Virus record (IMG/VR): IMGVR_UViG_2639762987_000002
DNA from: a virus
Lineage: Duplodnaviria; Heunggongvirae; Uroviricota; Caudoviricetes
Strand: one strand, 5' to 3'
Length of the DNA: 64,000 nucleotides
In this document: one piece after another, positions 6,047-64,000 of the stretch
Position numbering within the stretch: the first letter of the stretch is position 1
How the letters are laid out: the number at the start of each line of letters is the position of its first letter
Program-made: the position numbers and the translations under genes
Notes under the pieces: model-generated
The model's input: the letters and a program-made list of their open reading frames with translations, nothing else
What the model was told of the DNA's origin: nothing
The model's database searches: none

Positions 6047-9000
6047 ATGTGGTACAGGGAAGGTACTATCACATTTACACAGGGCAGCAATACTCTGGTT
6101 GGGGCAGGTACAGCCTGGAACGTAACAGCTAATGGTGTGTTGCCGGGGATGATCGTCATTGGCCCCGACAATAAGCTGTATGAGATCAAGCGCGTAACCA
6201 GTGATACGAACATTGTTCTCTCAGAACCTTATACCGGCGAAACTCAGTCTGAAGTTCCGTGCCGAATCATTACGACCTATGAAGGCGACTTAACACAGTT
6301 TAGCGCGCGCTTTACAGCACTAATGTCGCGTATGTCGGCTGATTCCAAGTCCATGCGCAGTTGGTTGACTGCTCTGGATGAGGTGACAATCGAGCGTGAA
6401 GACGGTACAGAAGTGACCGTTAAGCCGCTAATGCAGATCGTCAACGAGCACAACGAAAACGTTGAGTGGTATAAAAATAACACTGACGCGATTGATGCTG
6501 CTGGCGACAAAGCTCGTGAGGCGGCGGCCAGTGCTGCCGCAGCAGCAAAAAGCGCCAATGCCGCTGGAGAAAAAGCCTCTCAAGCGTCTCAAAGTGCATC
6601 CGCTGCGGCATCCTCACAAAGTGCCGCAAGTGCGAGTGCAACTGCTGCGAAAAAATCTGAAACGAATGCTGCAGCGTCACAAAAATCTGCAGCCACTTCT
6701 GCATCCACCGCGACCACGAAGGCGTCAGAAGCTGCCACCTCAGCCCGGGATGCGGCGGCCTCAAAAGAGGCAGCAAAATCATCAGAAACGAGCGCAGCCT
6801 CGAGCGCCAGTAATGCCGCTTCCTCGGCAACGGCGGCTGGAAATTCCGCGAAGGCGGCAAAAACGTCCGAGACGAACGCCAGGTCTTCTGAAACGGCAGC
6901 GGGACAGAGCGCCTCGGCTGCGGCAGGCTCAAAAACAGCGGCTGCGTCGTCTGCCAGTGCCGCGTCAACAAGTGCCGGGCAGGCCTCAGCCAGTGCCACC
7001 GCCGCCGGAAAATCGGCAGAAAGTGCCGCATCGTCTGCTTCAACGGCCACAACGAAGGCTGGCGAAGCCACTGAACAGGCCAGCGCAGCAGCGAGGTCTG
7101 CTTCCGCAGCGAAGACATCCGAAACGAACGCGAAAGCGTCGGAAACCCGTGCAGAATCCTCAAAAACGGCAGCCGCATCGTCCGCCAGTTCGGCAGCGTC
7201 ATCGGCATCATCTGCGTCTGCTTCAAAAGATGAGGCGACCAGACAGGCGTCAGCAGCGAAGGGCAGCGCCACGACGGCATCCACGAAAGCAACAGAGGCG
7301 GCAGGCAGTGCGACGGCTGCATCTCAGAGCAAAACTGCTGCCGAATCTGCTGCGACTCGTGCAGAAGCTGCCGCTGATCGTGCTGAAGAGATTGCCGGTG
7401 CAGTTGCGATGGAAGACGCAAGCCTTACAACTAAAGGTGTTGTGAAACTTAGCAGTGCTGTCGATAGCACCAGTGAATCGCTGGCTGCAACGCCAAAGGC
7501 AGTTAAAACTGTTAAAGATAGTTCAGTTCAAAAAACTGGCGACACAATGGGAGGGCAGTTAAAAATCGGCACGATAAATGCTCTTCGAATATTCAACCAA
7601 GCCTTTGGCCTTATTTTTAGGCGTTCCGAAGATTATATTCATCTTATCCCGACTAATGAAGGGGAGGGAGAAAATGGAGACATCGGTTCATTAAGACCAT
7701 TCTCTATAAACTTAAGATCAGGGTTGGTGTCCATCGGTAATGGACTAAAAGTTGGTGGTAGTGTTACTGGTAATTTGACCGGAAACGCAGATACTGCGAC
7801 CAAGATCAAGACAGCACGTAAGATTGGGGGCGTGGCATTTGATGGATCGGCAGATATCAACTTGCCTGGAGTCAACGCTACCGGTAATCAAAACACTACA
7901 GGTAATGCTGCGACCGCCACGAAACTTCAGGCAGCCAGAACGATTAACGGTGTGTCATTTGATGGTAGTGCAAATATCACATTGACCCCTTCAAATATTG
8001 GGGCGTTGGCATTAACTGGAGGGACTCTTTCAGGTGGTTTAACTGCTGCTGGTGAGATTATTTCAAAGTCAGCAAATGGTCTGCGTATTGCCTATGGCAA
8101 CTATGGATTCTTTATCCGAAATGATGGCTCAAATACATATTTTATGTTGACAGATTCGGGTAACAGTCTTGGTACGTACAATAGCTTAAGGCCGTTTATA
8201 ATTAGTAACTCTACTGGCAATGTTACAATTGCAACTAAATTAAACGCGAGTAGTGGTATCACTGGATCTTTATCGGGTAATGCAAGCACAGCAACCAAAT
8301 TGCAGACAGCAAGAACCATCGGTGGTGTTAGCTTCGATGGCACTGCGAATATTAATTTGCCTGGTGTTAATGCTGCCGGTAATCAGAACACTACCGGTAA
8401 CGCGGCCACAGCGACCAAGTTGCAAACAGCTAGAACTATTAACGGGGTGTCGTTTAACGGCTCTGCGAATATTTCAATACCAACAATTACGTCCAGAGGG
8501 CGCGTTACTGCGCTCACCGGTACAACACAAGGTGCTGCGACTGGATTGCAGATGTACGAGGCATATAACAATGGCTACCCTTCGTCTTACGGGAATGTGC
8601 TTCATCTTAAGGGCGCAACGGCCGTTGGTGAAGGTGAGTTGTTCATAGGTTGGAGCGGTACAAGTGGTGCTCATGCACCTGTACATGTACGTTCGCGACG
8701 AGATACGGATACATCCAGTTGGTCTGAATGGGCGCAAGTTTATACGTCCAAAGACTCAATTCCAGGTGTCAATGCCACCGGTAATCAGAACACTACTGGC
8801 AACGCAGCCTCTGCAACGAAGTTGCAGACAGCCAGAACAATTGGAGGTGTGTCGTTTAATGGCACCGCCAATATTAACTTGCCGGGTGTTAATATAGCGG
8901 GTAATCAGAATACGACTGGTAACGCAGCTTCAGCCACGAAGTTACAAACGGCTCGTACTATCGGTGGTGTTAGTTTTAACGGCACAGCCAATATTAACTT

Positions 9001-23615: not shown

Positions 23616-23690
23616 GATGGTGTAGCTCAGCGGTAGAGCAGTTGGCTGTTAACCAACTGGTCGGTGGTTCGAATCCACCCACCATCGCCA
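23616..23690 (+). tRNA. tRNA-Asn (anticodon GTT)
   Basis: Manual fold: acceptor GATGGTG/CACCATC, anticodon loop CTGTTAA, T-loop TTCGAAT, 3' CCA. Confidence 0.75.
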
Positions 23691-23695
23691 ATTTA

Positions 23696-23782
23696 GGGGA
23701 GTTAGTCCGTAGAGGTAGCGGTGTAGACTGTAAATCTACTGTCATGGCGACTCGGGTGGTTCGACTCCATCACTCCCCACCA
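23696..23782 (+). tRNA. tRNA-Tyr (anticodon GTA), long variable arm
   Basis: 87 nt; acceptor GGGGAGT/ACTCCCC, anticodon loop CTGTAAA, T-loop TTCGACT, 3' CCA. Confidence 0.65.
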
Positions 23783-23786
23783 AATT

Positions 23787-23862
23787 GCCGGTTTAGCTCA
23801 GTTGGTAGAGCGCCTGCCTTGTAAGCAGGATGTCAGCGGTTCGAGTCCGTTAACCGGCACCA
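23787..23862 (+). tRNA. tRNA-Thr (anticodon TGT)
   Basis: 76 nt; acceptor GCCGGTT/AACCGGC, D-loop AGTTGGTAGA, anticodon loop CTTGTAA, T-loop TTCGAGT, 3' CCA. Confidence 0.8.
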
Positions 23863-24079
23863 ACACAACAGGAAAGAGCATTGAAAACCGCCGAGACTGC
23901 CCTGTTTTAAGCGTAAGTCCGTGCAAACGTCATACAGTGCTCTTTTCGTTGTGGTTGATGCGCAGACTGATGCGCGGAAAGAAATGCCCCAGCGACACAC
24001 GAGGCGAGTTCACACACTGCAATGCAGTCAGTAGCCGGGGTCGCTAAGCCGGAGATCAGTACCGGTAACCACAACAATT

Positions 24080-24166
24080 GGAGAGTAGGGAGCATGGTGC
24101 TCAAGCGGTCTTGAAAACCGTCCCATTGTGCAAACGATGATGGTTCGATTCCATTACTCTCCGCCA
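24080..24166 (+). tRNA. tRNA-Ser (anticodon TGA), long variable arm
   Basis: 87 nt; acceptor GGAGAGT/ACTCTCC, anticodon loop CTTGAAA, T-loop TTCGATT, 3' CCA. Confidence 0.65.
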
Positions 24167-61342: not shown

Positions 61343-61936
61343 ATGATTGCAGCCGAAAAAATCAAACAGCGAAAGCGCGACAACTCTCTTCGTGACCTCT
61401 GGAGAACACCTGACTGGCTGTTTTCTGCCATTCAACGTTATCTTGGAGTGACATTTGATGTTGACGTTGCCTGCAACAAGGACAATGCAAAGCTGCCTAA
61501 TTTCATAGGCGTTGAGCGTGATGCTTTGAAATCTGAATGGGGACAGCCAGGTACAATTGCCTTCCTCAATCCACCCTACTCCAAAATCTCCCCCTGGATT
61601 GATGCGGCTATACGTGAGCAGGCTCGCGGAGTTACAACAGTGATGCTAATTCCTCAATCCCTAGATACAAAGTGGTATGAGCGTGCAACAGAGTGTGCGA
61701 ATGAGACGATTATTCTGTCTGGTGGCCGCGTAGCGTTTGTCGAGCCTGACGTAAATCTGGGTCAGGTAGAAGTAAACATCAACCCAGGTGGCAGTATGCT
61801 CGTTGTTTTTCGAGGATTCTGTCAGGACGCTGGGCACTCTATAAGCAAGATCCCTTTGGACGTCATGAAAAGTCTGGGAGGGTATGATCCTGCGAATGTG
61901 ATCAGGAAAAAAAGACCATCAAAGAAGGCTGCTTAG
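61343..61936 (+). CDS. DNA N6-adenine methyltransferase (phage Dam-like)
   Basis: 197 aa; catalytic FLNPPYSKISPW (NPPY) motif. Confidence 0.7.
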   Translation: MIAAEKIKQRKRDNSLRDLWRTPDWLFSAIQRYLGVTFDVDVACNKDNAKLPNFIGVERDALKSEWGQPGTIAFLNPPYSKISPWIDAAIREQARGVTTVMLIPQSLDTKWYERATECANETIILSGGRVAFVEPDVNLGQVEVNINPGGSMLVVFRGFCQDAGHSISKIPLDVMKSLGGYDPANVIRKKRPSKKAA

Positions 61937-61956
61937 TTTGTTCTGGTGTCTGTAAT

Positions 61957-62015
61957 TAGCCTGCTTCTGTATATATAAATAACTACATATTAATTATTAA
62001 TATACGGAAGAAGGC
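61957..62015. promoter_or_regulatory. AT-rich element with TATAAATA core flanked by imperfect inverted repeats (copy B)
   Basis: CTGTATATATAAATAA...TATACGGAAGAAGG; paralogous to 15766-15822. Confidence 0.4.
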
Positions 62016-62121
62016 TGTTTTGTATCAGAGACTCCAGACCTGAACATCACTACAGAATCCACTAGAACCCCTTCCCAGACGCTTTAAAATCGATTTTATG
62101 AACCACTTTAAGGAAACCAAC

Positions 62122-62349
62122 ATGTCATACCCGACTAATGTCGTTGCGCTCGTAGAGAGCGATTTTCTGGCCCAGGCTCGTGAAATGATGAAAGATCGTG
62201 AGCAGGCTTTCAACTTGTACGAATGGGCAATTAAGTGCTTGCATCTTGGCGAGCATCGCGAACTTGTTGAACAGCTTTTAGGTGAGTTGATCAATGAGGT
62301 GTTTGCCTTGAATGTTCAACTACATGGTAGAGAAAATAATCAATCATAA
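62122..62349 (+). CDS. Hypothetical small protein
   Basis: 75 aa from ATG 62122 with RBS AAGGAAA (ORF track begins 62098). Confidence 0.45.
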   Translation: MSYPTNVVALVESDFLAQAREMMKDREQAFNLYEWAIKCLHLGEHRELVEQLLGELINEVFALNVQLHGRENNQS

Positions 62350-62399
62350 TGATAGATAAGTACAAACTATTCATAAAGTGAATTGTAAGTGCTAAGATC

Positions 62400-62850
62400 T
62401 GATAGTTTCCAGTCGTAGACTGGAGACTCGACCTGATGGGTGGGGGTAAGCGTCACTGGCGTCAGGTTTAAAAAAGCTCACTACCAGCGTAGAACTGGTG
62501 CCGTTTAGGTGTCGGGGAAGGGGGAACCAAAGTGAGCAGAGACAAGGGTCACTTTATGATTGTCGAGTCTGGGGTGTTTCGAGAGGTTGAATCCAGTACT
62601 CCCCTTCATAAAGTGTGGGAAGATCTCGGTTCTGGGGTGCTGTCATCCATAACTTCCCAAGTCTAAGCTGGCAGTAGACTTAGACCATAACTTTTCAGGT
62701 TATGAAACGACCAGGTTGGTGAGAGATTTTTATACTCACCTCCCTGGGAGAGTATTACCTGAAAAGACAACCTCTCACTTCGTTCGAGGTGAACTTCACT
62801 CACTTCGTTCGTTCAGTTCAGGTTTATAAAAACCTGTTCTGGGAAGTAAT
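62400..62850 (+). ncRNA. Candidate structured RNA or regulatory leader in an ORF-free region
   Basis: No ORF; complementary AGACTCGAC (62424-62432) and GTCGAGTCT (62562-62570); repeated TCTGGGGTG and CACTTCGTTCG motifs. Confidence 0.25.
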
Positions 62851-62872
62851 TTGTTTATTTTAATAATTATTA

Positions 62873-62897
62873 ACACGCACGCGTGTGCGCACGCGCG
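62873..62897. other. 25-nt strictly alternating purine-pyrimidine tract (Z-DNA-prone)
   Basis: ACACGCACGCGTGTGCGCACGCGCG containing palindromes CACGCGTG and GTGCGCAC; upstream of RNase H start. Confidence 0.6.
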
Positions 62898-62934
62898 AGG
62901 AAAAATCGGCGCGGCGCTTGATTCAGGAGTTTAT

Positions 62935-63525
62935 ATGACGACGAAGACACCAGCCCGATCGCAAGCAAAAACTCGCAAAAAAGCCAAAAACAAAAATTCC
63001 CCCCGCACCAATCCCACAACGCCTGTCGTAGAGTTCAATCCCCAGCTTAAAACCGTGAAAATCTTTAGTGATGGCTCTTGCCTTAAAAATCCGGGTGGCC
63101 CGGGCGGTTACGGTATCGTTCTCCAGTATCGTGGTGAGGAACGCGAGTTCTCAGATGGTTTTCATAGCACCACCAATAACCGCATGGAGATGATGGGGGC
63201 ACTTATCGGGCTGGAGCGTTTGAAATATCCATGCAACGTTATTTTGCACTCTGATAGCCAGTATCTGAAAAACGGCATGACACAGTGGATGAAATGGTGG
63301 AAACGCAATGGATGGATGACTTCTGACAAAAAACCGGTAAAGAATGTTGATCTGTGGAAGCGTCTGGATGAGGCCGCAAGTCGACATAATGTTCGCTGGA
63401 AGTGGGTTAAAGGCCACGCCGGGCATCGTGAGAATGAAATATGCGATCGACTCGCGAAGATCGCAGCTTTTTCAGCAGCAGATATGCCTCACAAGAAAGA
63501 TATTGGTTTTGTTTATAATAAGTAG
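62935..63525 (+). CDS. rnhA: Ribonuclease HI with basic N-terminal extension
   Basis: ATG 62935 after RBS CAGGAG (ORF track begins 62851); [48 protein letters not shown] closely match bacterial RNase HI from memory. Confidence 0.9.
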
Positions 63526-63673
63526 TAAGTAAGTGTTTACCTATCATTTTAAATCATGTATCTTATCGGCGTCAGGATGACAATGTGTCGGTAAGACACA
63601 GTTCCAGGATGGAACGAGAAAGGCGGCTGGCAATCGCCAGCCGCAACTCTTTCTGACACTGGATGGGGTCCAC

Positions 63674-63982
63674 ATGGCACGTCAAACCTATTTCACTTCT
63701 GCAACTAAACGTCCTCGTTCTTTACGTCAAATTTTGGCCGAATTATTTAGCGGTCGTGTTATGTCACGTCTTGATGAACTAGAGACTACCGTTCGGTTGC
63801 TGAATGAACGTTTAGATAATCAAGCGTCAGTTGTTGCGAACGTGGGGGCGATTGTTGCCTCTGGTTCTTCACGCGAAGCGAAAAGTACACGGCCTTTAGT
63901 GAAGGAGAAAAACAACAAGGACAGTTCGAATGGAAAATTTTCAAAGAAAGAGGCTGAAACCAATGGCCTACGTTCTCATTAG
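63674..63982 (+). CDS. Hypothetical protein
   Basis: 102 aa; preceded by GC-rich hairpin GCGGCTGGC-aatc-GCCAGCCGC at about 63623-63645. Confidence 0.45.
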   Translation: MARQTYFTSATKRPRSLRQILAELFSGRVMSRLDELETTVRLLNERLDNQASVVANVGAIVASGSSREAKSTRPLVKEKNNKDSSNGKFSKKEAETNGLRSH

Positions 63983-64000
63983 AGTTTCACTGGCGACGGT

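Follow-up and report, generated by a model that had tools for sequence, protein, structure and literature searches.

The window, that is to say the whole 64-kb stretch of viral DNA analysed here, is an SSU5/pHCM2-type phage-plasmid. Its final 2.1 kb are 98-99% identical to the Escherichia phages CMS-2020a, Cyrano and PhiR41_1, and 78-81% identical to Salmonella phage SSU5 and to Klebsiella phage-plasmids. The DNA-metabolism module of SSU5 and pHCM2 runs in the order ribonucleotide reductase, ThyX, dihydrofolate reductase, exonuclease, Dam methylase, a 75-aa open reading frame (ORF), an ORF-free stretch, RNase HI (rnhA) and small ORFs, and the local genes of the module share a single orientation. 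The ORF-free stretch, which is the subject of this analysis, had been described in a first-pass annotation as a leader of rnhA, about 580 bp long and containing long-range complementary segments. Its length is 586 bp, counted from the stop of the 75-aa ORF (62349) to the rnhA ATG (62935), and the only ORFs called in it by program are 20-46 aa long. The complementary segments are equally real (e.g., 62424-32/62562-70, 62581-89/62768-76 and 62691-703/62754-66). The leader reading itself has to be divided: the region is transcribed and structured, but its role as a leader of rnhA is not supported.

The stretch 62400-62935 folds with a minimum free energy of -196 kcal/mol, far lower than that of shuffled sequences (z = -5.7), and the long-range pairings of the stretch are kept among relatives through compensatory changes. 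A consensus fold computed with RNAalifold on 18 sequences contains 96 pairs, 29 of which show double changes that preserve pairing, and almost none is broken. Standard pairs occupy 99.2% of the cells in the paired columns, a proportion that falls to 34-49% once the 3' partners have been shifted by one to three columns, and these slid controls contain two to five compensatory pairs instead of 29. The observed covariation score was matched by none of 500 shuffles. With 95 distinct sequences, 98.7% of the cells are paired and the compensatory pairs number 34. The variation used for the covariation test is supplied by one divergent clade, about 68% identical, made of Cronobacter sp. JZ38 and a few viral or metagenomic contigs; changes are also found within the main clade, at 62436/62462 (AT to GC) and at 62478/62535 and 62662/62684 (TA, TG or CG at each). 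G-U pairs represent 13% of the paired cells (225) and are valid on the plus strand alone. The RNA is thus encoded by the plus strand, and a minus-strand RNA was rejected, because these 225 cells would turn into C-A mismatches. Furthermore, a covarying helix (62427-32/62562-67) crosses another one (62550-58/62607-15), and the RNA is therefore probably pseudoknotted or able to switch between alternative folds, as judged from the aligned sequences. Compensatory pairs beyond controls, strand-specific G-U pairs and transcription, which are together what is generally expected from a structured RNA, are all observed for this stretch.

A protein-coding identity of the stretch was rejected: none of its short ORFs is intact across all 95 distinct relatives, and its variable columns lack a three-base periodicity (85/87/86). 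The 44-aa ORF annotated as CYRAN_81 in phage Cyrano, which lies within the RNA, is frameshifted in the Klebsiella and S. Concord versions. The stretch does not resemble a type I toxin-antitoxin mRNA (hok/sok-like) either, as it has no universally intact ORF and its candidate peptides are not hydrophobic. With about 450 nt and no GC hairpin followed by a U-run at its 3' end, it also differs from an Hfq-type small RNA. A scan of 61800-64000 with the 4227 models of Rfam 15 (cmscan, E <= 1) gave five weak matches at chance level, all well below gathering scores; a single one falls within 62350-62935, on the GC tract (62868-62920), and none on the RNA core, so that a known RNA family was ruled out. 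RefSeq has no non-coding RNA feature at this locus in 232 E. coli genomes, and literature searches found no description of the RNA.

In the relatives whose RNA core is 91-95% identical, identity falls to 75-81% in the dam, small-ORF and rnhA genes. Used alone as a blast query, the ORF-free stretch retrieves 687 PLSDB plasmids (from Klebsiella, Escherichia, Enterobacter, Salmonella, Citrobacter and Cronobacter) and 12 phage records; among 5426 complete E. coli genomes, 232 carry the RNA. More distant relatives were sought with an RNA 21-mer, in IMG/VR and GTDB, and with a gapped pattern of three motifs, in IMG/VR; apart from the stray 21-mer matches described below, only SSU5-type elements were retrieved, falling into two clades; a protein-anchored metagenome scan and blastn with the divergent clade again returned only these. 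On these searches, the family appears narrow and confined to SSU5-type elements of Enterobacteriaceae.

The RNA is preceded by its own promoter. An equivalent -35/-10 pair with a 16-17-nt spacer, mostly TG-extended, is found 23-29 nt before the core in 55 of the 58 distinct upstream variants, and its position is kept though the upstream sequence cannot be aligned among them. At least 10 unrelated versions of the sequence between promoter and core exist, every one folding into a hairpin of -4 to -17 kcal/mol; blastn detects no similarity in this promoter and hairpin module, though it adjoins the 91-95% identical core. Transcription would start at about 62405, and the 5' hairpin could be protective and possibly bear some specificity.

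Transcription was documented in the lysogen of E. coli LF82, whose re-annotated phage-plasmid is Cyrano and where CYRAN_81 (window 62532-62666) is among the transcribed genes, at 12 times the local prophage background in LB (PMC9928086). In the S1 Table of this paper, the log2(FPKM+5) values (FPKM, fragments per kilobase per million) of CYRAN_81 in two replicates are 6.8 and 6.9 in overnight LB (BLB), 9.3 and 9.0 in B1, 6.9 and 6.9 in B6, 9.0 and 8.2 in MB1, and 10.35 and 10.3 in MB6; over the ten samples they range from 6.8 to 10.35, compared with 3.1-5.8 for the upstream ORF CYRAN_80 and 2.6-5.0 for the RNase H gene CYRAN_82 (PMC9928086). From the column labels and the design of the study, B1 and B6 were read as the 1-h and 6-h samples of bacteria in medium, and MB1 and MB6 as the corresponding samples of bacteria inside macrophages. 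The RNA stretch is thus 12-40 times above both neighbours, rnhA included, and reaches inside macrophages about 10 times its level in the overnight LB culture. As CYRAN_81 is high while CYRAN_80 and CYRAN_82 are low in the same samples, the stretch is transcribed as a discrete and abundant RNA that falls to background before rnhA.

The gene located after the RNA varies. It is rnhA in about 100 of the roughly 125 loci with enough downstream sequence. In other loci (L075, L135, L127, L009, L003/L158, L012, L095 and L132), the RNA is unchanged but the slot after it is occupied by a gene for a TIR_2 protein of 822 aa, a restriction enzyme of GmrSD type, an HNH protein, a protein weakly matching a HEPN/RES N-terminal domain, BetT, a LysR regulator or a lipoprotein or, in the divergent clade, by a Tad2-like anti-Thoeris gene. 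In loci with other cargo, the sequence is common through ...GAGGGGAAAAATCG / GAGG(G)AAAAATCG (about 62908), then diverges. The slot is an accessory-gene hotspot, rnhA being its commonest occupant, and the constant gene association expected of a riboswitch or cis-leader of rnhA is not observed. By comparison, the RNA was found in 56 of 58 metagenome loci located via the 75-aa ORF, the remaining two being truncated. Since all the loci of this ORF that can be judged hold the RNA while the downstream gene varies, the RNA and the small 75-aa ORF are the core and the gene that follows them is accessory.

Its own conserved promoter and 5' hairpin, a conservation far above that of rnhA, its persistence where unrelated genes replace rnhA or where rnhA is absent, and an expression 12-40 times that of rnhA, which sits at background, show that the RNA is independent from rnhA and speak against its being a leader. 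Altogether, we estimate at about 80% the probability that the plus strand of approximately 62405-62860 is a gene in its own right, encoding a structured and probably pseudoknotted non-coding RNA (about 450 nt) that is a core component of this family of phage-plasmids. According to this model, a sigma-70-type promoter (62370-98) would drive the RNA during lysogeny. The transcript would open with a stabilising 5' hairpin, continue with about 17 helices arranged in two or three domains, and its level would be back to background before rnhA. The accessory slot located downstream would consist of an A+T-rich promoter-like box, an alternating GC tract of variable length and a swappable gene, usually the RNase HI with a disordered basic tail and, in other phage-plasmids of the family, a defence or counter-defence gene. 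The features of the locus are listed in Table 1.

Table 1. Features of the RNA locus and its flanking genes (window coordinates; a dot stands for no strand).
Feature	Position	Strand	Details and basis
75-aa helical ORF, phrog_5343	62122..62349	+	Conserved; adjoins the RNA on its upstream side; PHROGs match with E = 2e-52, no assigned function
Putative RNA promoter	62370..62398	+	-35 TTCATA (62370-75), 17-nt spacer, TG-extended -10 TAAGAT (62393-98); read from the sequence
5' terminal hairpin	62404..62428	+	Inverted repeat; sequence hypervariable, hairpin always retained
Structured non-coding RNA, ~450 nt	62405..62860	+	Ends putative; consensus fold, covariation, G-U strand test, RNA-seq peak
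Conserved RNA core	62427..62861	+	91-95% identical to Salmonella, Klebsiella, Cronobacter and Kluyvera relatives
5' domain	62427..62567	+	Closing helix 62427-32/62562-67, with CG to TA, GC to CG and AT/GT/GC changes
5'-domain inner helices	62435-45/62451-63, 62477-81/62532-36, 62495-501/62508-15	+	Compensatory pairs
Spurious 44-aa GTG ORF (CYRAN_81 in phage Cyrano)	62532..62666	+	Inside the RNA; intact in only 60 of 95 relatives
Central domain, helices (part 1)	62550..62760	+	62550-58/62607-15, 62569-73/62592-96, 62616-22/62653-59, 62635-39/62644-48
Central domain, helices (part 2)		+	62661-70/62675-85, 62686-92/62698-704, 62708-23/62735-50, long-range 62545-47/62758-60
Invariant loop GAGAGGUUG	62581..62589	+	Perfect complement of invariant CAACCUCUC at 62768-76
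Two adjacent hairpins	62771..62820	+	62771-89 and 62790-820; same loop UCAC(N)UUCGUUC
A+T-rich spacer with -10-like box	62847..62872	+	TAATTAT here, TAATAT in SSU5; alignments
Alternating tract	62873..62897	.	25 nt, perfect alternation; nested palindromes CACGCGTG and GTGCGCAC
GC-rich hairpin remainder, swap boundary and Shine-Dalgarno	62898..62934	+	Hairpin 62887-62917; AGGAG at 62924-28; fold and alignment
rnhA, RNase HI of 196 aa	62935..63525	+	Basic N-terminal extension in codons 1-37 (62935-63045)

Within the RNA, each of the central-domain helices shows one to five compensatory pairs, and 97.8-100% of their cells are paired. The invariant segments GAGAGGUUG and CAACCUCUC form standard pairs at eight of nine positions in all 95 sequences, with no covariation, and represent a candidate tertiary contact or switch. 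The twin loops of the two adjacent hairpins are underlain by a direct repeat, CTCACTTCGTTCG, located at 62774 and 62799. Of the corresponding helices (15 and 16), helix 16 has three compensatory pairs, and the arrangement is retained in the divergent clade. Across the window, exact matches to the loop motif TCACTTCGTTC are limited to the two copies in the RNA.

What such an RNA does can be discussed from its anatomy. Many of its loops and junctions are invariant, and the loop of 11-12 nt is identical in the twin hairpins, a layout that would suit a dimeric binder. The 64-kb window yielded no antisense target: complementarity extends to 11 nt at most, a length that shuffled sequences equal or exceed, and none reaches 12 nt. 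For these reasons, it is tentatively proposed, with a confidence somewhat short of even, that the RNA would function in trans, as a scaffold of the prophage state that is either protein-binding or regulatory; its hypervariable 5' hairpin could set lineage specificity.

Several points weigh against the interpretation as a whole. Some of the supported pairings are mutually exclusive (62686-92/62698-704 and 62691-703/62754-66), which implies that a single consensus fold is incomplete. Most of the compensatory changes derive from one deep split between two clades (about 68% identity), so that there were fewer independent events than covarying pairs. The 5' and 3' ends of the RNA were deduced indirectly, with no convincing intrinsic terminator at its end, and the strand-specificity of the LF82 RNA-seq dataset is not established. 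Finally, the idea of a trans-acting scaffold is grounded in RNA anatomy alone, and the co-conserved 75-aa protein has no fold match.

A first alternative is a cis-acting leader, namely a very long 5' riboswitch-like attenuator or insulator that would normally terminate transcription ahead of the cargo and permit read-through upon some signal or during the lytic cycle. An abundant upstream RNA next to a silent downstream gene is indeed the RNA-seq pattern of terminated leaders, all the local genes lie in one orientation, and the mutually exclusive, partly covarying pairings (the 62686-704 hairpin versus 62691-703/62754-66), together with the invariant 9-nt complement, could form a switch. However, unrelated genes are swapped downstream while the RNA stays 91-95% identical, and between the RNA core and the cargo gene lie a promoter-like box and some 75 nt of spacer and GC tract whose conservation is poor. 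Neither a terminator/anti-terminator pair nor a pairing that would sequester the Shine-Dalgarno (62924-28) is predicted to join the core to the 5' end of the cargo, the alternative pairings being internal to the RNA; no known riboswitch or leader family is matched, and 450 nt with about 17 helices is far above the size of known attenuators. A cis-acting leader is thus considered quite improbable.

The chances of an RNA-primed or R-loop origin of replication are smaller still. In this scheme, the transcript would form a persistent hybrid in the A+T stretch 62847-72, from which the adjacent phage RNase HI would make a primer, as for ColE1 RNA II or T4 oriF/oriG. This would fit a locus placed in a DNA-metabolism module beside RNase HI, Dam and exonuclease genes, and G-rich RNA segments succeeded by an A+T-rich stretch, then by a GC tract prone to unusual DNA structure; the distance from the promoter to the A+T stretch (about 62405 to 62847) is also of the order of ColE1 RNA II, whose length is comparable. 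Yet many members that bear the RNA have no RNase HI, PLSDB types the plasmids as IncFIB with RepA-type replicons, and conservation of the locus is lowest in the A+T stretch and the GC tract. Moreover, 62405-62520 contains no minus-strand promoter-like site for an antisense RNA I-like transcript, Rfam gives no RNAI match, a GC-skew inflection is absent at the locus, and the RNA is most abundant in the lysogen, stationary cultures included. The lowest credit goes to a DNA-level element (iterons, packaging site or single-strand DNA structure) or to a small protein gene, the 44-aa CYRAN_81. The two copies of CTCACTTCGTTCG could be protein sites, G-T pairs are tolerated in single-stranded DNA hairpins too, and phage Cyrano does have a coding sequence (CDS) annotated here. 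Against these proposals stand a conserved promoter just upstream, a transcript peak and about 435 nt of conserved structure with strand-specific G-U pairs; the ORF is frameshifted in relatives and shows no codon periodicity, and, to our knowledge, there is no single-stranded DNA stage in the life cycle of siphovirus phage-plasmids, which speaks against the DNA element.

The independent structured RNA can be compared with several known systems. Like GOLLD and ROOL, which are large structured non-coding RNAs of phages and prophages, it spans several hundred nt, has many covarying helices and invariant junctions, belongs to a mobile element and is expressed with no obvious mRNA target. Unlike them, it is smaller (about 450 nt), matches nothing in Rfam 15, is restricted to SSU5-type elements of Enterobacteriaceae and is not located beside tRNA genes. 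As P1 c4, P4 CI RNA, the anti-sRNAs AsxR/AgvB of EHEC prophages or Gifsy IsrK, it is carried by a prophage and driven from a promoter of its own, which is active in the lysogen when the lytic genes nearby are silent, and, as in P1/P7 c4, a hairpin that varies between lineages could set specificity. However, these RNAs are 60-200 nt long and act by short antisense pairing, whereas the RNA described here has about 450 nt, no target of at least 12 nt in the window and no Hfq-type U-tail terminator. The ColE1 RNA II/Rop system also associates a long structured transcript with an RNase HI gene and a small gene for a helical-hairpin protein, but here there is no antisense RNA I, the replicon is of RepA/IncFIB type, the RNase HI is dispensable cargo and the small protein has no detectable fold similarity to Rop. 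It is because its size, pseudoknot, invariant junctions and twin loops resemble those of particle or scaffold RNAs that a scaffold acting in trans is ranked first among possible functions.

A bolder proposal, which we regard as unlikely at present, is that the RNA represents a new class of large pseudoknotted RNAs that would be core regulators of SSU5-type phage-plasmids. For example, it could be part of an RNA-protein particle, or its 5' hairpin could set lineage-specific immunity or incompatibility, and it could thereby control the choice between dormant and lytic state or the exclusion of related elements. If true, such a regulator would be without counterpart among known phage immunity RNAs. 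It should be emphasized that SSU5/pHCM2-type phage-plasmids are common in clinical Enterobacteriaceae, where they carry resistance and defence genes, and that their best-conserved non-coding segment is an unannotated, elaborately folded RNA expressed in the lysogen. It is unusual for a large structured RNA family to have gone unnoticed in E. coli, Salmonella and Klebsiella. The analysis also marks the site just past the RNA as a hotspot for defence and counter-defence genes, and the tailed RNase HI as an accessory gene, not a core replication gene.

Besides the RNA, the other features of the locus deserve some comments. The 75-aa ORF is known from just 29 clusters, all from Enterobacteriaceae. 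Its product has no match in Pfam; an AlphaFold 2 (AF2) model predicts a helical hairpin (predicted local distance difference test, pLDDT, of 78), for which no fold match was found in the PDB, Rop included. The lack of both kinds of match ruled out that the protein is a recognisable RNA binder. The record PQ492289.1 (Klebsiella phage vB_KpnS_p4727; match at its positions 6-1592) begins a few bases from the start of this ORF.

The A+T-rich spacer located beyond the RNA core contains a -10-like box, which alignments place at constant distance before the GC tract and which might be a promoter. The tract itself had been noticed in the first-pass annotation as a 25-nt run of alternating purines and pyrimidines, and it is found exactly so at 62873-62897: ACACGCACGCGTGTGCGCACGCGCG. 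It is the longest such run of the window (the next one has 15 nt) and exceeds the maximum of 200 shuffles (21 nt); it is Z-DNA-prone by sequence. The tract lies outside the conserved RNA core, and relatives have versions of 6 to 27 nt, the majority of them 21-26 nt long. This spread indicates that no fixed length is required, and would be expected of slippage in a CG/CA repeat. As RNA, the tract folds no better than shuffles (z = -0.7). A repeated operator was ruled out, the tract having no second copy in the window; it may be a promoter-proximal element of the cargo slot, such as an operator, a 5' untranslated region (UTR) hairpin or a supercoil-sensitive spacer.

The 196-aa protein is, on its domain and motifs, an RNase HI (type 1 RNase H). 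It matches the Pfam RNase_H family (PF00075) with E = 1e-44 over profile positions 3-140 of 141, and its motifs DGSC, NNRME, SDSQY and NEICD, which hold the catalytic Asp/Glu/Asp/Asp, align with E. coli and Vibrio RnhA. The closeness to the bacterial enzyme proposed beforehand is borne out, with 60% identity to E. coli RnhA over residues 38-192 in a strong full-length alignment. The basic N-terminal extension exists too, though it was overestimated. It has 37 aa with nine K/R and one acidic residue, and not about 50, because translation begins with the ATG at 62935, which AGGAG (62924-28) precedes by 6 nt, and not with the program-called TTG at 62851. Relatives are annotated from the same ATG, and the extension is no artefact of start-site choice: downstream of its Shine-Dalgarno, it is in frame in 45 of 45 distinct RnhA variants, with conserved ends (MTTKTPAR at the start) and a basic middle that varies by whole codons. 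The phage-plasmid forms have 193-202 aa, compared with about 155 aa for the host enzymes (61-62% identical, 79% query coverage), and in two forms that are more remote, the FxPxLKT junction is again present but the basic tail is shorter. In an AlphaFold model, residues 1-27 have a pLDDT below 50, while confidence is good for residues 28-39 and for the RNase H core; the tail is thus predicted to be disordered and positively charged. Although the catalytic domain and its motifs are shared with E. coli RnhA, the phage-plasmid enzyme adds this tail of about 27 aa (net charge about +8), then a conserved motif, both of which the host enzymes do not have. The tail, which is unrelated to the eukaryotic hybrid-binding domain, plausibly confers extra nucleic-acid binding. 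Given its position in the hotspot, one may ask if the gene of this tailed RNase HI also serves in defence or counter-defence.

Two database annotations of this region are artefacts. The Cyrano record (8634-8768) lists the 44-aa protein CYRAN_81 within the RNA, and the SSU5_090 RNase H CDS (6844-7608, 765 bp) begins about 150 bp too early, extending into the 3' part of the RNA; the false CDS and the over-long SSU5 rnhA start can now both be corrected.

Some observations concern particular sequences of the RNA. In the E. coli lineage only, the promoter region 62370-62400 (TTCATAAAGTG...GTGCTAAGATCT) partly duplicates the RNA segment 62605-62626 (TTCATAAAGTG-TGGGAAGATCT), which suggests that the promoter module was perhaps rebuilt from RNA sequence. 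The RNA 21-mer AACCTCTCACT(N)CGTTCGAGG (62769-62789) also occurs in six unrelated genomes (about one expected by chance) and in one viral contig; in one of these sequences (L031), it lies inside a 442-aa ORF. In three Acidobacteria, its reverse complement lies directly before the ATG of an ORF and reads as GAGAGG plus a spacer; this ORF presumably encodes an anti-sigma factor, judging from its N-terminus. These stray matches, in or beside genes, are probably due to chance or similar to ribosome-binding sites.

Elsewhere in the window, a scan for tRNA and tmRNA genes gave matches confined to a cluster at 23.6-24.2 kb, which comprises four tRNAs (Asn-GTT, Tyr-GTA, Thr-TGT and Ser-TGA; 23616-24166, plus strand). 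Another transcript stands out in the lysogen: CYRAN_43, a "hypothetical protein" of phage Cyrano, reaches 723 times the prophage background, by far the top value of the element (PMC9928086). It could correspond to another small RNA or to a highly expressed accessory (moron) gene.

A second small conserved element (63537-63672) separates the rnhA stop from the next ORF, which starts at 63674. It shows a promoter-like TTTACC-17-TATCTT, the hairpin GUCAGGAUGAC, which does not vary in 65 distinct relatives, and the hairpin GUUCCAGGAUGGAAC, with a covarying hairpin between the two, then a strong GC hairpin (63623-44) followed by GGAUGG, which overlaps the Shine-Dalgarno of the next ORF. A GGA in hairpin loops is the signature of CsrA binding, and the element has a weak match to the Rfam CsrB model (E = 0.059). 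From these sequence motifs, the element could represent either a 5' UTR under the control of CsrA or a small RNA acting as a CsrA sponge.

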